The position numbers and the translations under genes were made by a program. This document shows, in pieces, positions 233 through 15,015 of a stretch of 64,000 nt of DNA. Positions within the stretch are counted from its first letter, which is position 1; every line of letters begins with the position of its first letter. Location: the NCBI GenBank assembly GCA_046045965.1, contig JBJOKS010000016.1, positions 1-64,000 of the forward strand, given 5' to 3'. This stretch comes from Cyanobacteriota bacterium. GTDB lineage: Bacteria > Cyanobacteriota > Cyanobacteriia > Cyanobacteriales > Nostocaceae. The notes below the pieces were generated by a model, which did not search any database, had not been told where the DNA came from, and saw only the letters and a list, made by a program, of their open reading frames with translations.

Positions 233-2053
233 ATGTCGCCAAATCAAGAAACCCAACCAGTAGAAAAAATCTATTTACCCCGCACCAGCGAGTCAGAAAC
301 ATTAAAAAAAATTCGCCATACCGCTTCTCATGTCATGGCCATGGCCGTACAAAAGCTGTTTCCCAAGGCGCAAGTTACCATTGGTCCGTGGATTGAAAAT
401 GGGTTTTATTATGACTTCGATAACCCTGAACCCTTCAGCGATAAGGATTTAAAAGCCATCCAAAAAGAGATGGTGAAAATTATTAACCGCAAACTCCCTG
501 TTATTCGGGAAGAAGTCAGTCGTGAGGAAGCACAAAAACGAATTGAAGCAATCAAAGAACCGTATAAATTAGAAATTCTCGCAGATATTAAACAAGAACC
601 GATCACCATTTATCATTTAGGTGATCAATGGTGGGATTTGTGCGCTGGTCCCCACGTCGAAAATACCAAAGACATCAACCCCAAAGCCATAGAATTAGAA
701 AGTGTAGCCGGTGCTTATTGGCGTGGTGATGAAACCAAAGCCCAGTTACAACGCATTTACGCTACAGCTTGGGAAACTCCCGAACAACTAGCAGAGTACA
801 AACGTCGCAAAGAAGAAGCATTAAGGCGTGATCATCGTAAACTGGGTAAAGAACTGGGTTTGTTTATTTTCGCTGATCCTGTGGGTCCTGGTTTACCCCT
901 TTGGACTCCTAAAGGTACTTTGCTGAGAAGCATTTTAGAAGACTTCCTGAAAAAAGAACAGTTAAAGCGGGGTTATTTACCTGTTGTTACTCCCCATATT
1001 GCCAGAGTTGATTTATTTAAAACATCGGGACACTGGCAAAAATACAAGGAAGATATGTTTCCGATGATGGCTGAAGATGAGGAAGCAAAAGCTTTAGAAC
1101 AGGGTTTTGTCCTCAAGCCGATGAACTGCCCTTTCCATATCCAAATATACAAGAGTGAATTACGTTCTTATCGTGAATTACCGATGCGGTTAGCGGAATT
1201 TGGCACAGTTTACCGCTATGAACAATCAGGAGAATTAGGAGGTTTAACTAGAGTACGTGGTTTTACTGTTGATGATTCTCACCTGTTTGTCACTCCCGAA
1301 CAATTAGATAGTGAATTTTTGAATGTTGTAGATTTGATTTTGACGGTGTTTAGAAGTCTGCAACTGAAGAATTTTAAAGCCAGATTGAGTTTCCGTGATC
1401 CAGCCAGTGATAAATATATTGGTAGTGATGAAGCATGGAATAAAGCCGAAGGTGCGATTCGTCGCGCTGTGCAAGAATTAGGAATGGACTATTTTGAAGG
1501 TATTGGGGAAGCGGCTTTTTATGGTCCGAAACTTGATTTTATCTTCAGTGATGCTTTAGAAAGAGAATGGCAGTTGGGAACAGTACAGGTAGATTACAAT
1601 TTACCTGAACGCTTTGATTTAGAATACGTTGCTGAGGATGGTTCGCGTAAACGTCCTGTAATGATTCACCGCGCACCTTTTGGATCTTTAGAAAGATTGA
1701 TAGGGATTTTAATTGAAGAATATGCAGGTGATTTTCCTTTATGGTTAGCACCTGTGCAGATTCGGTTGTTACCTGTGGGTGATCTGCAATTAGACTTTAC
1801 CAAAGAAGTTGCTGCGAAAATGGTAGCTTTAGGAATTAGAGCAGAAGTTGATTTAAGTGGCGATCGCTTGGGTAAATTGATTCGCAATGCAGAAAAAGAT
1901 AAAATCCCAGTAATGGCGGTAGTAGGTGCAAAAGAAGTAGAAAGCAATTCTTTAAGTATTCGTACCCGTGCATCTGGGGAGTTGGGAGCAATATCTGTAG
2001 ATGAAGTTGTGAATAAAATGCAGGAAGCGATTTCTAATTTTAGCAACTTCTAA
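233..2053 (+). CDS. thrS: Threonine--tRNA ligase
   Basis: RHTASH and DLCAGPHV editing-domain motifs, KPMNCP, YRYEQSGELGGLTRVRGF, IHRAPFGS class II aaRS motifs. Confidence 0.98.
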   Translation: MSPNQETQPVEKIYLPRTSESETLKKIRHTASHVMAMAVQKLFPKAQVTIGPWIENGFYYDFDNPEPFSDKDLKAIQKEMVKIINRKLPVIREEVSREEAQKRIEAIKEPYKLEILADIKQEPITIYHLGDQWWDLCAGPHVENTKDINPKAIELESVAGAYWRGDETKAQLQRIYATAWETPEQLAEYKRRKEEALRRDHRKLGKELGLFIFADPVGPGLPLWTPKGTLLRSILEDFLKKEQLKRGYLPVVTPHIARVDLFKTSGHWQKYKEDMFPMMAEDEEAKALEQGFVLKPMNCPFHIQIYKSELRSYRELPMRLAEFGTVYRYEQSGELGGLTRVRGFTVDDSHLFVTPEQLDSEFLNVVDLILTVFRSLQLKNFKARLSFRDPASDKYIGSDEAWNKAEGAIRRAVQELGMDYFEGIGEAAFYGPKLDFIFSDALEREWQLGTVQVDYNLPERFDLEYVAEDGSRKRPVMIHRAPFGSLERLIGILIEEYAGDFPLWLAPVQIRLLPVGDLQLDFTKEVAAKMVALGIRAEVDLSGDRLGKLIRNAEKDKIPVMAVVGAKEVESNSLSIRTRASGELGAISVDEVVNKMQEAISNFSNF

Positions 2054-2498: not shown

Positions 2499-4187
2499 AT
2501 GATAGCGGAACAATTTCCCTGGCTGACCGCGATTATCCTCCTCCCTCTCCTTGCATCCTTTTTGATTCCCCTGCTGCCGGATAAAGACGGCAAGCTGATC
2601 CGTTGGTATGCGTTGGGTGTAGGTATCGCCGACTTTGCGTTAATGTGCTATGCTTTTTGGCTGCATTATGATGCTGGTGATGCGAGTTTTCAACTAATAG
2701 AAAATTATGCCTGGATGCCAGCATTAGGGCTAAACTGGTCTGTGGCAGTAGATGGTATTTCAGCGCCATTAGTTCTTTTAGCAGGTTTTGTCACCACCCT
2801 GGCGATTTTTTCAGCATGGCAAGTTGACCGCAGGCCGCGCTTATTTTACTTTTTGATGTTAGTGTTATATTCGGCACAGGTTGGGGTATTTGTCGCCAAA
2901 GACCTGCTGCTATTTTTCATTATGTGGGAAGTGGAACTGGTTCCCGTCTATCTATTAGTTTGTATTTGGGGTGGTCAAAAACGTCGCTACGCCGCTACGA
3001 AATTTATACTATATACCGCCGCAGCTTCTATATTTATCCTAGTAGCCGCCCTAGCAATGGGGTTATACGGTGATGGTAATATCAGTTTTGATATCACCAC
3101 CTTGGCAGGTCAAGATTATCCTCTAGGTTTACAATTGCTGCTCTATGCAGGTTTGTTTATTGCCTTTGGGGTGAAGCTGGCTATTTTCCCCTTACATACC
3201 TGGTTGCCTGATGCCCACGGTGAAGCATCTTCTCCTGTATCTATGATTTTGGCAGGTGTGTTACTGAAAATGGGCGGATATGGTTTAATTCGCATGAATA
3301 TGGAACTTCTCCCCGATGCCCATATTTATTTTGCACCAGTTCTAGCCATTCTCGGTGTTGTCAATATTATCTATGGTGCATTAAATTCCTTTGCCCAAAC
3401 GAATATGAAACGGCGTTTGGCTTATTCTTCCATTTCCCACATGGGGTTTGTACTGATAGGTTTGGCCTCTTTCACCGATTTGGGGATGAATGGGGCAATG
3501 TTACAAATGATATCACATGGTTTAATTGCCTCTGTGTTATTCTTCCTAGCTGGTGTCACCTACGACCGCACCCATACAATGGTAATGAAAGATATGGGGG
3601 GTATTGGTCAAGCCATGCCCATCGTGTTTGCGTTGTTTACGATAGGTGCAATGGCATCTCTGGCTTTACCGGGAATGAGTGGTTTTGTGGGTGAACTTTC
3701 GGTTTTTGTGGGTTTGACAACTAGCGATGTTTATAGTTCCACCTTCTGTACTGTGACAGTTTTCCTCGCTGCTGTCGGTGTTATCCTCACACCTATCTAT
3801 CTGCTTTCTATGCTGAGACAGGTATTTTATGGTAAGGATGCAGCATTGATTTGTGATATCAATAATGCAGGTTCGGAAAACCTAGAAGATGAAGGTACTG
3901 CTTGTTTTGGTACTGATTGTTTATTACCTGGCCAATCCGTTTACAGTGATGCTAGACCTCGTGAAGTATTTATTGCAGCCTGTTTTCTAGTGCTGATTAT
4001 CGGTATTGGTTTCTATCCCAAAGAAGCTATGCAGATGTACGATGCCAAGACTGTGGCTGTAAATGCCCATGTCCGCCAATCTTATACGATTATCTCGCAA
4101 ACCAACCCCGGTATTTATGCAAATGGGTTATTAACTCCGAAAATTGCTGAAGTTGAGGTAAATTCGGTTTTGGCAACTGTGAAGTAA
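2499..4187 (+). CDS. ndhD: NDH-1 subunit 4 (NdhD2-type), paralogue A, with Cys/acidic C-terminal insertion
   Basis: Multi-TM NuoM family; [27 protein letters not shown] motifs. Confidence 0.95.
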
Positions 4188-5729: not shown

Positions 5730-7211
5730 ATGCAAAATGGAAGGTTTACTTTTATTGATCTTTTTGCGGGAATTGGTGGGTTTAAATTTGGATTAAGTAA
5801 TAATGGTGGTGAGTGTTTAGGTTTTAGTGAAATAAATAAAGATGCAATCAATACATATTGTGAAAATTTCCAAGTTTCACCTAGTTTGAATTTGGGAGAT
5901 ATTACCAAAATCAAAGACTTAGCACCTCATGATTTTTTAACTGCTGGTGTTCCTTGTCAAAGTTGGTCTATTGCTGGTAAAAATTTAGGTTTTAATGATG
6001 ATCGCGGGCAGTTATGGAATGATACAATTTATTTACTCCAACAATCGAAACCAAAAGTATTTATTTTTGAAAATGTTAAAGGATTAGTCGATCCTCGAAA
6101 TCAAGATGCTTTATCATATATATTACAAAGAATTGAACAAGCTGGTTATCATGCCAACTATTTTGTAATTAACTCTTTTGATTATGGTGTTCCACAAAAT
6201 AGGATTCGAGTATATATAATTGGCTTTAAGGAAAAAGAATATTTCCAAAATTTTATATTACCAAAACCCCTGGAAAATAAGCTAAAACTAGGTGATATAT
6301 TAGGTATTACGTCACCTAAACAAGAAAATAAAATTATTCAAAGAGACTTATTTGGAAATGTTGTTGAATCTAAAAGGATGAGTCTTTCAACGACAAACGG
6401 ATTCAACGATTACTTTTTGTTTAATGATCTGAGAAATGGTCATACAACAATACATTCTTGGGATATTATTGAAACTACTCAAAGACAGAAAGATATTTGC
6501 TTATTATTACTGAAAAACAGACGCAAAAGTAATTATGGTGAATTAGATGGCAACCCATTATCATTAGCACATTTTCAAAGTCTAGATCCGTCAATTACAC
6601 AAGCAGAAATTGATGAATTGATTAAATTGGAAATATTCAAACCTGAAGAATATCGTTTTATTGTGAAGCAGTATAATATTAATGACTTGACCAAGGATGA
6701 AGAGCTTCTACTTTCATTTACAAATAATCAAGAAATAATTATTGATAGGTTAAAAAAGCAAAGAGAATTTAAAATAGAAAAAGTGTCAATTATCAAAACA
6801 ATTGAGTCTCTAAAAGAAAAAGATATTATTGAGTGTACAGAAATTCGTTATGATTTTAAGAATACTAAAATAAGTACAGGATTATTTGGTGTAAATCGGA
6901 TCTTTTTACCAAGTTCTGATATTTTTCCTACGTTAGTTGCCAGTGATACAAATGACTTTATCACTTTTAAAACAATCGCAGCCCAAAATCATCATGACTT
7001 TAAAAAGAAATTCATCCAGGAAGTTTATAGGACAAAAGAATTTAGAAGAATTACTAAAAGCGAAGCTTGTTTAATACAGGGTTTTCCCAAAGATTTTAAA
7101 TTACCAGAGTCAAGAGCAAGATGGATGAAACTAATAGGAAATAGTGTTTCAGTGCCAGTAATTGATAAACTGTGTAAAGCGATTATTGAAACTGGGGTAT
7201 TTGCAAATTAA
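5730..7211 (+). CDS. DNA (cytosine-5)-methyltransferase, no intact cognate endonuclease adjacent
   Basis: Motif I FAGIGG, IV PCQ, VI ENV, VIII QNRIR, IX/X IQGFP..IGNSV; long variable region. Confidence 0.93.
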   Translation: MQNGRFTFIDLFAGIGGFKFGLSNNGGECLGFSEINKDAINTYCENFQVSPSLNLGDITKIKDLAPHDFLTAGVPCQSWSIAGKNLGFNDDRGQLWNDTIYLLQQSKPKVFIFENVKGLVDPRNQDALSYILQRIEQAGYHANYFVINSFDYGVPQNRIRVYIIGFKEKEYFQNFILPKPLENKLKLGDILGITSPKQENKIIQRDLFGNVVESKRMSLSTTNGFNDYFLFNDLRNGHTTIHSWDIIETTQRQKDICLLLLKNRRKSNYGELDGNPLSLAHFQSLDPSITQAEIDELIKLEIFKPEEYRFIVKQYNINDLTKDEELLLSFTNNQEIIIDRLKKQREFKIEKVSIIKTIESLKEKDIIECTEIRYDFKNTKISTGLFGVNRIFLPSSDIFPTLVASDTNDFITFKTIAAQNHHDFKKKFIQEVYRTKEFRRITKSEACLIQGFPKDFKLPESRARWMKLIGNSVSVPVIDKLCKAIIETGVFAN

Positions 7212-8556: not shown

Positions 8557-8696
8557 AGCGGCTAGGCAGCTTGAGTAAGTATTTATTACTATTTATTGCC
8601 TAAACTCAAATTATGTTAAGAAATGTGTTTACAAAAGTAACGATTCCTTAATATAATGTAATTAAAAGAAAAAATCAAAATTGATTGTCAACAGTG

Positions 8697-10283
8697 ATGA
8701 ATCCGATACAGATCCCTTGGCTATCAGCCATAATTTTTTTGCCCTTGGTGGCATCCTTAGCAATTCCCTTCATTCCCGACAAAGACGGTAAAACCGTTCG
8801 CTGGTATGGTTTAGGAGTAGCTTTTGCAGATTTAGCATTAATGATTTATGCGGTTTGGCAAGGTTACAACTTCCAAAGTTCCGCTTTACAACTCACAGAA
8901 ACTTATAGTTGGATACCTCAAATTGGCTTAAATTGGGCAGTAGCAATTGATGGTTTATCAATGCCCTTGGTGCTACTTACAGGTTTAATTAACACATTGG
9001 CAATATTCGCGGCTTGGAAAGTAACCAATAAGCCGCGTTTATTTTATGCGTTGATGCTGGTGATGTATAGTGCCCAATTAGGTGTATTCCTCGCCCAAGA
9101 CTTGTTATTATTCTTCTTAATGTGGGAAATTGAGTTAGTACCTGTTTATTTATTGATTTCTATTTGGGGAGGCAAAAACCGCCGTTACGCAGCTACTAAA
9201 TTTATTCTCTACACAGCCGCAGCATCTATATTTATTCTCGTAGCTGGTTTAACAATGGCTTTCTATGGTGATAACTTCACCTTCAACATGACAGAGTTGG
9301 GACTTAAAGAATATCCCCAACTGTTAGAATTAGCTCTCTATGCAGGTTTCTTAATTGCTTACGGTGTAAAATTACCTATTTTCCCATTCCATACCTGGTT
9401 GCCTGATGCCCACGGTGAAGCGTCTGCACCCGGTTCTATGATTTTAGCTGGTGTGTTATTAAAAATGGGTGGTTATGCGCTAATTCGCTTTAACATGGAA
9501 ATGTTAGGTGATGCCCACGCTGTTTTTGCTCCAGTTTTAGCAATTTTAGGTGTAGTTAATATTGTTTACGGTGCTTGTTGTGCCTTCGCTCAAACCAACT
9601 TAAAGCGCCGTTTAGCTTATTCTTCTATTGCCCACATGGGTTTTGTGTTAATAGGCATTGCATCTTATACCGAAATTGGTATTAGCGGTGCGGTGTTACA
9701 GATGGTTTCTCATGGTTTAATTGCTGCTAGTTTATTCTTCTTATCTGGTGTCACCTACGAACGTACTCACACCTTGATGATGGATAAAATGGGTGGTATG
9801 GCTAAGGTAATGCCTAGAACTTTCGCTTTGTTTACTGTTGGTTCAATGGCTTCTCTGGCTTTACCCGGTATGAGTGGTTTCGTGGGTGAGTTGATGGTGT
9901 TCCTGGGTATTGGAACTAGCGATGTTTATAGTTCTAGTTTCAAAGTTGTAGTTATATTCCTATCAGCAGTTGGTGTAATTTTGACACCTATCTATTTACT
10001 CTCTATGTTGCGTCAGGTGTTCTACGGTAAGCAAAGTGAAGAGTTAATTTTAGATGCTGTAGTTGCTGATGTTAAACCCCGTGAGTTGTTCATCACTGCT
10101 TGTTTGTTACTTCCTATCATCGGTATTGGTTTCTATCCTAAGTTAGTTACAGAAACCTATGATGTGAAAACTGTGGAAGTTGCGGCTCATGCTCGTCAAG
10201 TGTTGCCTGTTGTTGCTCGTCAACAACCTACAAGTTTATATTCTCAAATCTTTTCTGCTCCCACTTTAGCTAGTGCTGAGTAG
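8697..10283 (+). CDS. ndhD: NDH-1 subunit 4 (NdhD2-type), paralogue B
   Basis: NuoM motifs [35 protein letters not shown] 8697. Confidence 0.95.
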
Positions 10284-10434: not shown

Positions 10435-10520
10435 AGATAGTTCTTCCTCATCAAAATCATCATAACAGGGTTTTCGGGTCGTGTCAAGGGGTTTTACTCT
10501 TTCTAATGCGAAAAAATAGC
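10435..10520 (-). repeat. 86-bp direct repeat, left copy, containing TTGACA-17-TATGAT on minus strand
   Basis: 73/86 identical to 14518-14603 by manual alignment (49/53 in core). Confidence 0.9.
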
Positions 10521-10789
10521 GTTTTTTAAAGTGATTTTTGGTTTGCTTGTGTCAATCCAATCTTGCTAATTACACCTAATGTTGTTTGTAATTGTTGTTG
10601 GGTTTCCTTGTGTCAACCCAACCTACTGCTAATATTTTTTTATAAGTTACGTAAATTCTCTGTTGCTTTTTATGTCGATATTTTGAGCAATTTATAAGAA
10701 ACATCGAGAAAATAAACAATTTTTGATGGTGGTGACATAAAAATTACAATCATTATTATAATGGTTACAGTTATTTAACACACATCACC

Positions 10790-11473
10790 ATGAGTTCAAA
10801 GACTAAGGATTTACAGGCAAGTTACGCTAAAACTCGCTTGCTGCTTGCTTTGTGGGATTTGGGAGGATGTGAGCAGAAGGTAGCTAAGGGTAAATTAAGC
10901 AAGCGGGTAGTGTCCAAAGGTCAGAAGATGGCGGACTATCAAGGTATTTTAGAGGATTTGGAAGCACAGGGAGCGATCGCTGTTGCTAAAAAAGGATCTG
11001 GAATGAGTTATTCTCTCACTTCTCCAATAGGTTTAGAGGTCTTGGGTGCGGGTTTGCGTAGTGGTGAGTTTAAGTTTAGTACAAATATTGGCGCTTGGGT
11101 AGGTAATTCTTTATTGCGGTTGTTGCGTCAGGATAATGTGGTTGTTGCTGCACCTGTGGTTGTTAATGATGGGGTTAAGGGTGGGGTTATTAATTCCTAT
11201 GAGGAGTTTAAAACTGTAGCGTTGGATGTTTATGATAAGTTGAATTATGAATATAATTTTAATAATTTAGTACCTATTTATCGTATTAGAAGAACTATAG
11301 GAGAGCGCGTTAGTAGAACTGAATTTAATGATTGGTTATTAGAAATGCAAGCTGATGATATTTTTCAACTACAAGGAGGGAGTGTAGAAGATAGCGCACC
11401 AGACAAAATTGAAGATTCTGTCAGTACAGAATTAGATGGTTTACGTTGTTATGCTCGACTGTTGAAAGATTAA
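10790..11473 (+). CDS. Hypothetical protein, probable winged-helix DNA-binding domains
   Basis: 227-aa ORF; N-terminal helix-turn-helix/wing pattern (YSLT..GLEVL) and C-terminal LVPIYRIRR..RVSRTEFNDWLLEMQ segment; first gene of cassette. Confidence 0.75.
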   Translation: MSSKTKDLQASYAKTRLLLALWDLGGCEQKVAKGKLSKRVVSKGQKMADYQGILEDLEAQGAIAVAKKGSGMSYSLTSPIGLEVLGAGLRSGEFKFSTNIGAWVGNSLLRLLRQDNVVVAAPVVVNDGVKGGVINSYEEFKTVALDVYDKLNYEYNFNNLVPIYRIRRTIGERVSRTEFNDWLLEMQADDIFQLQGGSVEDSAPDKIEDSVSTELDGLRCYARLLKD

Positions 11474-11521
11474 AAAAGTTTAGATTTTATTGAAACATTC
11501 ACACACCACACTGAAATTATT

Positions 11522-13423
11522 ATGACTACTGACACATCCAAAATTGATCAACTGATTAAAACTCATAACCCATTTGCAGGTCATATTGTAGTTAGACCTC
11601 AACAAATATGGGGTAAAAGTTATCCTGATGTTCCTTCAATAAATGCTCATGCTTCTAATGCTGTATTTGATGCAATTGACAAAATTAAAAAGGGTCAACA
11701 TCAGACTGTAGGTATTACAATTACCGCAGAAAAAGGATTAGGAAAAAGTCATATTATTAGTAGAATACGTCATCAATTACAAGGCAGTCAAGATGGCGTA
11801 TTTATTTACATGAGTAAGTATGATAATTTAAATAAAATTCAATGCCAGTTTTTAGAAAGTGTTACATCTAGTTTAAGAGCATTTATTAGACCTAATGTAA
11901 TGCCATTTCAAGAAATAGCCGCAGCATTAATTAATGAGGGTATGGGATGGAAATATACTACAGAAAACTATATTGATCATGTATTTCCGAAGTTACTAAA
12001 ACAGTCTTTAGAAAAATATAATTCAGTTACAACAGTAGTTGAAACATTAAGAAATCGAATTGAACAAAAAAAGTCTAATATTAGCAACCCTTATATAGTT
12101 CAAGCAATTCTATGGACACTTTCCACAAATCATATTAATGCTGCAAATTTCTGGTTATCAGGAAAAGAACTACCAGAAGCACACGCTAAGTTAATGGGAT
12201 TACCAAATATTACCGAAAGTGACAAAGAAACTCAAGCCTTAAATAATGCTAGGCAAATTTTAGATATTGTTAGTGATTATCGAGTTCCTGTAATTTGTTT
12301 TGATGAATTAGATATAGCTGACATTGCAGATAATGGATTTACAGCAGCGCAGGTAGTTGCTAATTTATCCAAAGATTTATATAACAACCTTAAAAAAGGA
12401 GTATTGCTATTAGCAATGTATCCTGAAACATGGAGAGATCAAATAAATTATTTACCACAAGCAGAAGCAGTAATTGATAGATTAATTAGTGAAAAAACTG
12501 ATCGAAAACCAATCATTTTAAACTATCTCAATTCCGATCATGTAGTTGCGCTAGTACAAACATGGTTACAAGAATTTTACCAAAAATATCAACAAATGCC
12601 ACCTCATCCTCTTTACCCATTTAATGAAAGTAAACTGAGAGAATTTGGTAAAGGTAAACCGACTATTAGAGCAGTTTTAAAATGGTGTGCAGAAAATTTT
12701 GTAATATCTAATAATGGTGATGATCCACCAGGAAAAGATAATGGAGACAAAATAGATCCTAATCCTGTTAAACCCTTCTTTTTAGCGGAATTAGTACATT
12801 TAAAAAATCCTAATGATTCATTATTAGACGATGAAGAAACTATTTCTAAATCTCTAAAATTCTGTTTTGAAAGATTGATAGGTGAAACTCTGAAAGGTGT
12901 AACAGTTGAAAAAGTTGAAGAGTTTACTAATGACAACCATCTTGATTTTAAAATTATTGGTAATCAGCAACAAGTGAAAATTGGAGTAGATGTTTTACAA
13001 CAGCCAGGAGGTGTAGGTGTTACAACAGCTTTAGGTAAACTAATTGCCTATGAAAAGTATGATTTAACTCGCGGTTGTTTAGTACGTTCCAAACAAATAG
13101 GTACTAATGCAGCAGCAGCTAGAGAAAATTTACGAAAACTCTTAAAAGAAAAAGGAGGAGAATGGGTAAGTTTACAATTTCAAGATATTAAACCACTCTT
13201 AGCAATATTTTATGTGTGGGAAAATCATAAGAGTTACGAATTAACAGAAGAGCAGATTTTTGAATTTATTAAACAGAAGAAAATTGTAATTACAAATCCT
13301 CTAATTAAAGAAATTTTAAGTGATCCTTCTGGTCAAGAACCTGATAATTTAACAGATGATGAATTACCAATGAGAATACCTCAAAGCGTTGATAATAGCA
13401 ATGACATTAAATTAAACATCTAA
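11522..13423 (+). CDS. P-loop (AAA-like) ATPase with uncharacterised C-terminal domain
   Basis: Walker A AEKGLGKS, Walker B VICFDELD; G/D/P linker, then alpha/beta domain (LDFKIIG..KIGVDV). Confidence 0.85.
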   Translation: MTTDTSKIDQLIKTHNPFAGHIVVRPQQIWGKSYPDVPSINAHASNAVFDAIDKIKKGQHQTVGITITAEKGLGKSHIISRIRHQLQGSQDGVFIYMSKYDNLNKIQCQFLESVTSSLRAFIRPNVMPFQEIAAALINEGMGWKYTTENYIDHVFPKLLKQSLEKYNSVTTVVETLRNRIEQKKSNISNPYIVQAILWTLSTNHINAANFWLSGKELPEAHAKLMGLPNITESDKETQALNNARQILDIVSDYRVPVICFDELDIADIADNGFTAAQVVANLSKDLYNNLKKGVLLLAMYPETWRDQINYLPQAEAVIDRLISEKTDRKPIILNYLNSDHVVALVQTWLQEFYQKYQQMPPHPLYPFNESKLREFGKGKPTIRAVLKWCAENFVISNNGDDPPGKDNGDKIDPNPVKPFFLAELVHLKNPNDSLLDDEETISKSLKFCFERLIGETLKGVTVEKVEEFTNDNHLDFKIIGNQQQVKIGVDVLQQPGGVGVTTALGKLIAYEKYDLTRGCLVRSKQIGTNAAAARENLRKLLKEKGGEWVSLQFQDIKPLLAIFYVWENHKSYELTEEQIFEFIKQKKIVITNPLIKEILSDPSGQEPDNLTDDELPMRIPQSVDNSNDIKLNI

Positions 13424-13430
13424 AGTAAAA

Positions 13431-14450
13431 ATGAATCAGTCCTTTTCACTTCCTACTGCATTATGTTTACCCGTCCCTGATATTGAAGCATTAATACAGG
13501 GACAAACAATAGCAGTTTTACCTGAAATGTTTCTTCGTCCTGGACAAAGATTTTATCTTTATCCTGTAGAAATATCTACAGTAGAAATTGATAAATATTA
13601 CCGTAAAAACTTTTTACCCATTGCTAAAACTGCATGGGGAAAATTTCATAAACCAGGAATTTTACTACAACCTCAACAACTGAATTTAATTGAAACTAAC
13701 CAACAACTACAATTACCCTTATCTCAAAATAATCTTTTAATTAAAGCATGGGCTAAATGTGAACTTTGTCGAACTTTAGATAAAACCGAATCACTAGATA
13801 TTTTATCTCAAATAACCATCTGGAAAACAGAAAGATTTGAGGAAATATTACAAAACCTTACTCATTTTTTCCTAGCTTATTTACGAGTTTATCACTTAGA
13901 TAAACCCTTAGAAATTCCAATTATTCCCAACATTCAAGAAAAACTAGGAAAATTTGCACCCTTTTGTATTAAAATTATTATGGCTGCTGGTGATTTAACA
14001 AAAGATGCTGAATTAACTGCAAAAGGAAATAAAATGAACGTTATTCGTCCAGAAACTTTACAAAGGTTAGTTGAATTAAAAGCAAAACATCCAGGTTCAA
14101 TAGATTTATTAAATTTGAAGCAATACTTAGAAAATGAACCATTTGGAGAAAAAGCTGATGATGAAATTCACGAATATATAAAAAAAGTAGAAAAAGAAAT
14201 AAAATTGAGATCGCACATTATCCAAGTATTAAAAAACTACTTACAACTTTCCCAAAATGAAAGTGCAAAAGTAGAATCACTTCATGCAATATATGTCACT
14301 TCTAACCCACCAAAAAACCTGGATGATCGGGAATTATATAATATTCTCATCGAACTATCATCACCATTAACAGGTTATTTAGGAAGAATTAAAGAAAATT
14401 ATTGGAAAAAAGATCGCTTTTACTACTTACGCGACTTATCAATAAATTAA
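13431..14450 (+). CDS. DUF1802-type protein, probably lacking its central nuclease segment
   Basis: N-terminal ALCLPVPDIEALIQG..F.LYP..AWAKCE..FLAYLRVY; C-terminal ILIELSSPLTGYLGR winged-helix-like tail; starts 7 nt after ATPase stop. Confidence 0.65.
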   Translation: MNQSFSLPTALCLPVPDIEALIQGQTIAVLPEMFLRPGQRFYLYPVEISTVEIDKYYRKNFLPIAKTAWGKFHKPGILLQPQQLNLIETNQQLQLPLSQNNLLIKAWAKCELCRTLDKTESLDILSQITIWKTERFEEILQNLTHFFLAYLRVYHLDKPLEIPIIPNIQEKLGKFAPFCIKIIMAAGDLTKDAELTAKGNKMNVIRPETLQRLVELKAKHPGSIDLLNLKQYLENEPFGEKADDEIHEYIKKVEKEIKLRSHIIQVLKNYLQLSQNESAKVESLHAIYVTSNPPKNLDDRELYNILIELSSPLTGYLGRIKENYWKKDRFYYLRDLSIN

Positions 14451-14517
14451 AAATAACTCTTTTCTCTGCGTGAAATAAAAAATAAACGCAATTTGAATTA
14501 ACGTGGTTATAAATTTC

Positions 14518-14603
14518 AGATAGTTCTTCCTCGTCCAAATCATCATAACAGGGTTTTCGGTCCGTGTCAATAGATTTGACTATCTCTATTGCGGAAAAAT
14601 ACC
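14518..14603 (-). repeat. 86-bp direct repeat, right copy, containing TTGACA-17-TATGAT on minus strand
   Basis: Matches 10435-10520. Confidence 0.9.
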
Positions 14604-14712: not shown

Positions 14713-15015
14713 ATGGCCAAAAAGAGTATGATTGAGCGCGAGAAGAAACGCGCCAAATTGGTGGAAAAGTATGCTGAAAAGCGGGAAGCCCTGCTAGATG
14801 AGTTCAAATCAGCAGAATCTCCCCTAGATAAGCTAGAAATTCACCGCAAAATTCAACAACTACCTCGCAACAGTGCGCCTACTCGTCGCCAAAACCGTTG
14901 CTGGTTAACTGGTCGTCCTAGAGGAGTTTACCGTGATTTTGGACTATCTCGGAACGTTCTCCGGGAATGGGCGCACCAAGGTTTATTACCTGGGGTTGTT
15001 AAGTCTAGCTGGTAG
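14713..15015 (+). CDS. rpsN: 30S ribosomal protein S14 (non-zinc-ribbon form)
   Basis: [42 protein letters not shown]. Confidence 0.99.

Follow-up and report, generated by a model that had tools for sequence, protein, structure and literature searches.

A nuclease-deleted copy of a three-gene cyanobacterial operon whose intact form is a candidate restriction-type defence system

We analysed a 64,000-nucleotide stretch of Nostocaceae DNA (contig JBJOKS010000016.1, positions 1 to 64,000; hereafter the window) and within it a cassette of three genes, enclosed by an 86-bp direct repeat, which encodes a winged-helix-like protein (gene 1), a P-loop ATPase (gene 2) and a DUF1802-type protein (gene 3). 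The original prediction, made from the sequence alone, had described the cassette as a candidate undescribed anti-phage or modification-dependent restriction system. Our analysis suggests that it is probably the second, nuclease-deleted copy of an operon widespread among filamentous cyanobacteria whose intact form acts as a methyltransferase-free, restriction-type defence system. Carrying this reading are the gene order and linkage, the way the ATPase and full-length gene 3 fold, the catalytic motifs of the homologues, the deletion, an intact paralogue on contig C28 of the same genome and the swapping of alleles between loci.

The architecture of gene 3 is best seen in a structural model (pLDDT 87) of a 514-residue homologue that is 92% identical to the window protein over the best local match. 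In the model an ASCH domain is joined by a helical linker to a FokI/BspD6I-like nuclease domain, and a winged helix lies at the C terminus. The nuclease domain superimposes on FokI with a Z-score of 14.5 (root-mean-square deviation (rmsd) 3.2, 150 aligned residues) and on BspD6I with a Z-score of 14.2; the ASCH domain matches EOLA1 (Z 9.7) as well as TRIP4 and ZmASCH, and the winged helix is of the ORC type (Z 10.4). Pfam finds DUF1802 in the window protein (E = 1.7e-21), and Mrr_cat is matched in 31 of 81 gene 3 members. The GGAGG.D and ECK motifs are kept in 104 of the 108 full-length copies. The domain assignments made earlier (ASCH fold, PD-(D/E)xK nuclease, AAA+ ATPase) hold in these full-length homologues, and sequence searches of the PDB returned nothing significant for the ATPase or gene 3.

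Compared with its closest homologues, which are full length and 92–94% identical over the best match, gene 3 of the window is 175 residues short; the missing part starts where the ASCH domain ends and extends beyond the ExK motif, and the columns E253, D282, E294 and K296 fall in it. Judged from its sequence, the window copy is a degenerate member of the family whose nuclease catalytic core is deleted and which cannot cut on its own; a reader-nuclease at this locus, as originally proposed, is not supported. None of the other homologues among the ten aligned (121 listed) has the same length and junction. Changes at conserved columns number 3, 5 and 2 in genes 1, 2 and 3 against medians of 2, 3 and 3, so there is no excess decay. 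Because the closest homologues are full length the deletion appears recent, and an absence of further decay is expected. An intact cassette with a complete gene 3 is present on contig C28, at the site where two genomes of the same genus hold theirs. Its ATPase belongs to another type and is 40% identical to that of the window. The system is better studied in the C28 paralogue than in the window, which is a poor specimen. Elsewhere in the family, a separate internal deletion has removed the nuclease and most of the winged helix from gene 3 at L172:7862-8696, and at L164:9448-10897 and L173:7263-8721 the catalytic motifs are replaced in a second, tandem copy of gene 3, possibly a decoy or a reader-only subunit.

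The model of the ATPase (pLDDT 88) has Cdc6 (Z 14.8, rmsd 3.5, 238 aligned residues), archaeal ORC (Z 14.1), TnsC (Z 13.8) and MuB as its top structural matches. Both Walker motifs reported originally are there; in the family no form of Walker A is commoner than AEKGLGKS (62 copies) and none of Walker B commoner than ICFDELD (81 copies). The extra C-terminal domain noticed earlier resembles Mrr-type folds with a TM-score of about 0.5. A conserved (D/E)xK was not found in its matching strand, and the model comparison lends moderate support to its being, as is likely, an inactive restriction-nuclease fold. The model ends with three short helices and a disordered tail, at the place where the ATPases of the class predicted in PMC10853773 (see below) carry a C-terminal wHTH behind the inactive nuclease. 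Gene 1 likely consists of two winged-helix domains, its matches being weak (Rio2 winged helix, E = 0.015; DUF6293_C winged helix, E = 1.7e-5 in 5 of 60 members). The ESM Atlas gave no family name for gene 1, and profile comparison detected no sequence likeness of gene 1 or the ATPase to gene 3. With Pfam, gene 1 has no match, the AAA match of gene 2 is below threshold and DUF1802 is the match of gene 3. The statement that no named system is matched agrees with PADLOC and NCBIfam, neither of which gave a system match for the cassette proteins; the only PADLOC match is DpdH (E = 0.042 over 56 residues), and the NCBIfam DpdH model scores 17.8 bits against a cut-off of 450.

The family was compiled as 118 loci, consisting of the window, 37 loci with a strong ATPase match and the 80 best among 497 genome hits, a set which leans to kin of the window's ATPase; four loci duplicated in it were dropped from later counts. 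Gene 1, ATPase and gene 3 are present in full and in this exact order at 83 of the 118 loci and the ATPase alone at only 3, which bears out the claim that the three genes are one unit. The remaining 32 loci show an extra ATPase, tandem cassettes, frameshifts or contig ends. Broken, duplicated and nuclease-dead copies recur across the loci, with a nuclease-dead second gene 3 at two and tandem cassettes at two more. A strong ATPase match (E < 1e-50) is present in 36 of 61 related genomes and in 22 of 37 from the window's family, and the close homologues bearing names are from Nostocales. Across the phylum, 39 of 201 sampled genomes have gene 3, full or partial: 22 of 26 from the window's family, 8 of 10 from another and none of 82 from the largest family sampled. 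The predicted patchy distribution holds at the level of the phylum; in the window's family the gene is frequent. Gene 3 has no match in 72,556 plasmids, and none of its 14 pattern hits in viral contigs was confirmed. A PADLOC scan of 148 of the 308 neighbour clusters gave 21 matches, mostly to generic domains (no background control), and no methyltransferase was found among the clusters scanned. Directly behind the cassette, on the opposite strand, a small two-gene pair is seen (L143:9775-10089, L192:9385-9744), whose genes occur at 37 and 32 of 108 loci, have no Pfam match and are sometimes in tandem.

The modules of the operon do not share one history. Over 80 complete loci, the pairwise identities of gene 1, the ATPase and the ASCH domain correlate (Spearman 0.56–0.88), whereas that of the nuclease does not (0.05–0.14). 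The nuclease exists as two alleles (53 and 27 loci; identity 65% within and 41% between them) and the terminal winged helix as two types (50 and 24 loci, 6 singletons left out). On a gene 1–ATPase tree built by FastTree, with long branches flagged, the nuclease alleles change 24 times compared to 22.6 for shuffled labels and the winged-helix types 20 times compared to 20.6, while the ASCH domain, taken as control, changes 3 times compared to 11.9. The nuclease and terminal winged-helix alleles are random on the operon tree and the ASCH domain tracks it. The C-terminal domain of the ATPase is also swapped between close kin. Balanced selection in a conflict would produce such shuffling, which does not by itself identify the target.

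A second pattern concerns HIP1. Over the 80 loci, the ATPase gene contains 1 HIP1 site in 150 kb, gene 3 contains 216 in 114 kb and gene 1 contains 136 in 53 kb, counts which overstate significance as the loci are kin. From the loci's own flanks 117 sites are expected in the ATPase gene, GC3-matched flank genes hold 0.56 per kb, and the GC content at third codon positions (GC3) of the ATPase (0.24) and gene 3 (0.26) is alike despite the HIP1 contrast. Depletion is weaker in sister ATPases (0.32 per kb against 0.69). A solo ATPase lacking partner genes (L056:9066-10973) has 5 sites, unlike the operon-bound copies, although this is a single case. The sites of gene 3 lie at five columns near domain borders; 82 of 343 identity switches are within 6 codons of a site where 13% is expected (pairs not independent), and in 19 disjoint pairs this is so for 9 of 32 switches (p = 0.018). 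Breakpoints in gene 1 are not enriched near HIP1 (7 of 108, with 17% expected) and the C-terminal domain of the ATPase is swapped in the absence of HIP1, so HIP1 as a necessity for the swaps was rejected. In the available parts of earlier reports, HIP1 in homology arms raises integration (10.1101/2024.09.10.611283), HIP1 is proposed as an uptake signal (PMC13756078) and the evidence for it in recombination is limited (PMC4390886). One could picture a combinatorial defence locus steered by HIP1, in which sites kept in the conserved blocks on either side of the swappable nuclease and winged-helix modules, and excluded from the ATPase gene, would let HIP1-promoted uptake or recombination exchange effector alleles from one lineage to another and spare the motor. 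We consider this doubtful and offer the link between HIP1 and shuffling as a lead only. The function of HIP1 has long been open and, if the link were true, the operon would be a natural test case; both the shuffling and the lack of HIP1 in the ATPase gene can be measured and could tie HIP1 to natural module exchange.

The flanking repeat, whose two copies are identical at 73 of 86 positions, was found as described. On the minus strand each copy matches 11 of 12 positions of the sigma-70 consensus and carries an extended -10, the two being the best such sites in the region. The left copy is directed away from the cassette, and the right copy points into gene 3 from its 3′ end, in antisense. The repeat resembles, at the sequence level, a dispersed sigma-70 promoter-like element with a conserved leader, which occupies 10438-10487 and 14521-14570 in the window. 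It has 12 copies in this genome, 10–15 in three genomes of the same genus and 8–10 in two others (G001, G002, G003, G018 and G044 being the repeat-bearing genomes besides the window's), compared to 0–1 for a reversed control, and no common gene lies downstream of the copies. A profile search found it in 2 of 119 other loci (39 + 80), never abutting the operon, and not in the C28 locus, and it has no match in the plasmid set. The repeat abuts no other cassette searched, so that its membership of the system is not supported, and with 12 genomic copies it was rejected as a dedicated attachment site. As a known RNA it was likewise rejected, its three chance snoRNA matches being far below cut-off.

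At the same ndhD–rpsN site the sister genome G001 has no cassette and holds a single repeat copy among accessory genes (Rep_1, kinase, pentapeptide). Because this copy is left-like at 8 informative sites and right-like at the next 9, the cassette probably arrived via a crossover inside the repeat, as far as one genome can tell. The accessory genes (L073:5451-10126) encode a rolling-circle Rep_1 protein, a Ser/Thr kinase and a pentapeptide protein; the site is an insertion hotspot, with perhaps an integrated plasmid remnant in G001. In that genome nth is followed by one repeat and rpsN preceded by another; the two genes are adjacent in other Nostocales, which suggests a rearrangement at the repeat. 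Repeat copies often stand just behind kinase or Rpn-like genes, and a pair of them brackets a frameshifted Rpn-like gene (L220) and an accessory block (L218).

The coordinates are collected in Table 1. The three ORFs (open reading frames) are co-oriented with gaps of 48 and 7 nucleotides, as described, and lie between genes which we take, from their translations, to be an ndhD-type gene (8685-10283) and rpsN (14713-15015). The GC content of genes 2 and 3 is 31% and 30%, that of the genome 38%. These genes are AT-rich and free of HIP1, as had been pointed out, yet at the genome's rate zero sites would be seen by chance with a probability of 0.22, and in the window alone this was rejected as a sign of foreign origin. 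RNA-library contigs over the cassette are of low depth and cannot show transcription. A second ndhD-type paralogue (2499-4187) lies less than 6 kb from the first. A C5 cytosine methyltransferase gene upstream (5730-7211) contains a long insert that is variable, and no nuclease gene was seen next to it; it was rejected as a partner of the cassette because it is syntenic in G001, which has no cassette at the site.

Table 1. Features of the cassette and its flanks in the window.
Feature	Position	Strand	Remarks
Left repeat copy	10435-10520	-	TTGACA-17-TATGAT with TG at 10487-10459, then conserved purine-rich leader
Likely own promoter/leader of the operon	10639-10789	+	80-90% identity to 8 listed cassette loci including the C28 paralogue
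Gene 1	10790-11473	+	227 aa
Gene 2 (ATPase)	11522-13423	+	633 aa
AAA+ core, ORC/Cdc6-TnsC type	gene 2 aa about 1-398, Walker A at 11726-11749	+	by model comparison
C-terminal nuclease-like fold	gene 2 aa about 415-600	+	Mrr_cat/NA-iREase1, TM 0.48-0.55
Gene 3	13431-14450	+	339 aa; DUF1802/ASCH joined directly to nuclease-domain tail and C-terminal winged helix
Junction of in-frame 525-nt deletion	13963/13964	+	by DNA comparison; linker and FE / GGAGG.D / ECK motifs gone
Right repeat copy	14518-14603	-	promoter-like site 14570-14542

How the intact operon might work can be proposed from its parts. We infer that the three proteins form a complex, in which the winged-helix protein would act as the loader that brings the ORC/Cdc6-type ATPase onto DNA; by analogy with ORC/Cdc6 and TnsC, the ATPase would then oligomerise on DNA, driven by ATP, and recruit the ASCH-nuclease, which would cut foreign, possibly base-modified, DNA. 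The dead nuclease fold of the ATPase may serve as a decoy. The window copy probably came in by recombination within the promoter-like repeat and lost the catalytic core afterwards. That cutting depends on modified bases is a tentative suggestion, somewhat less probable than not; ASCH is a predicted, unproven reader of modified DNA in the available text of PMC11037411, PMC7641849, PMC12707154 and PMC12839542.

Several observations weigh against a defence role or against parts of this scheme. The cassette is not only frequent but also syntenic in the window's family. Its neighbours are mostly housekeeping genes, with fpg and ndhO at 52 of 108 loci and pgi at 45, so a defence-island setting is not supported, and PADLOC matches are absent from the 19 commonest neighbour clusters. 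The ASCH domain is the least variable module of gene 3, although it should vary most if it set the target; the LKEW and RKGG motifs of stand-alone DUF1802 are missing from the fused one, and PMC11037411 itself leaves the reading of modified DNA by ASCH unproven. PMC2799420, in the part available, describes RcaD/RcaG, a distant sister pair, as a transcription regulator, and no experiment on any family member was found in searches of the literature on DUF1802, all429x tags and cyanobacterial defence. As for arrival by crossover, the A/T-rich tail of the G001 repeat is mixed, being left-like again at 6 sites.

Some of these points fit a family that is a housekeeping or regulatory DNA machine of multicellular cyanobacteria, for repair, chromosome handling or control of transcription in the manner of RcaD/RcaG, with the nuclease secondary. 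The fixed chromosomal site at about half of the loci and the high frequency in the window's family speak for it, as do the reports in PMC2799420 that RcaD/RcaG are regulators and that all4300-like and RcaD-like proteins were pulled down on promoter DNA. However, in the same available text the all4300-like protein produced no shift when used as a glutathione S-transferase (GST) fusion, and binding of the RcaD-like protein was non-specific. The RcaD/RcaG-like loci seen here carry an exonuclease-nuclease-FtsK gene. With the ATPase not found in 15 of 37 genomes of the window's family at the strong-match level, the catalytic nuclease retained nearly throughout and balanced, deep alleles shuffled between close kin, we regard such a role as unlikely. 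The TnsC and MuB folds that rank alongside Cdc6, together with the repeats bracketing the cassette and the single chimeric copy in G001, could instead point to a selfish or transposon-derived target-selection module (TnsC/TniQ-like) with the repeats as attachment sites. This is highly improbable, as the cassette contains no transposase or integrase, the repeat abuts the operon at none of the other loci searched and the plasmid set and viral contigs gave no match.

Two further alternatives concern the window copy alone. It may be an accessory or decoy unit and not a product of decay, in which a gene 1 and an ATPase of the other type and a reader-only gene 3 extend or shield the C28 system. The deletion is in frame, conserved columns show no excess of changes, the two cassettes of the genome differ in ATPase type, and nuclease-dead second copies and tandem cassettes exist at other loci. 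Yet a lack of decay is expected anyway after a recent deletion, the deletion runs through the middle of the nuclease fold, its length and junction are shared by no other aligned homologue, and a strong promoter-like site is directed antisense at gene 3, all of which makes this quite unlikely. An assembly error, with the copy in truth intact, is very improbable too. Although the junction is bridged by one public run among the pieces listed (X1), which may be the source sample, the bridging contig (13741-14360, depth 73) shows zero differences, no joint or loose end is listed at the junction in four runs and the 339-residue protein is on record on 2 contigs. A nuclease-deleted second copy of a defence operon thus remains our preferred reading. 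In filamentous cyanobacteria, bloom-forming and model species alike, the operon may restrict infection by phages and the delivery of DNA, and its class, already predicted and present in most Nostocaceae, would provide the first ASCH-reader restriction system shown to work. What is added here are the scattered nuclease and winged-helix alleles, with the ASCH domain tracking the tree, and a nearly HIP1-free ATPase gene beside a HIP1-rich gene 3.

Among known systems, FokI and BspD6I provide the best structural matches of the nuclease domain; in the present family a methyltransferase partner is lacking, the winged helix is C-terminal and the nuclease is predicted from its fold. Type IV enzymes of the PUA superfamily (MspJI, VcaM4I) and McrBC share a PUA/ASCH-type domain fused to a PD-(D/E)xK nuclease, a fusion recovered here in the full-length homologue, the absence of a cognate methyltransferase and, by analogy with McrB, an AAA+ partner. 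They differ in that here the putative reader is DUF1802/ASCH, the motor is of the ORC/Cdc6-TnsC type, a winged helix-turn-helix (wHTH) subunit is added and PADLOC gives no match; McrB and McrC models have no match in Pfam, PADLOC or NCBIfam. The likeness to McrBC noted originally survives as an analogy and not in the type of ATPase. Orc/CDC6 capture systems with an inactive restriction endonuclease (iREase) and HerA/FtsK, including the cyanobacterial RcaD/RcaG-like loci, have a paralogous wHTH protein and ATPase in the same order (22% identical to gene 1 and about 20–25% to the ATPase in RcaD/RcaG-like loci). Their third gene encodes exonuclease-PD-(D/E)xK-FtsK in place of ASCH-nuclease-winged helix; the cassette has no HerA/FtsK gene, FtsK being found in sister loci only. 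The sister operon (RcaD-like, RcaG-like, exonuclease-nuclease-FtsK) is seen in many of the same genomes (L058, L059, L198-L217), and RcaD/RcaG, described as pigment regulators, may belong to the predicted defence class. The closest precedent, which removes the claim that the system is undescribed, is a one-sentence prediction from 2024 in section 22 of PMC10853773, where operons of Orc/Cdc6, an ASCH-fused restriction endonuclease (REase) and a DndG-like wHTH protein are considered likely counter-invader systems; the main text of that paper, as available, has 0 mentions of cyanobacteria. At 227 residues gene 1 appears too short for a triple wHTH of DndG size, and the window copy has no active REase. 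Otherwise the two share the same three components, a (here likely) inactive REase after the AAA+ core of the ATPase and the counter-invader prediction, and the ORC/Cdc6-clade ATPase, the iREase fold and, in family members and the C28 paralogue, the ASCH-fused REase of that class are all found here.

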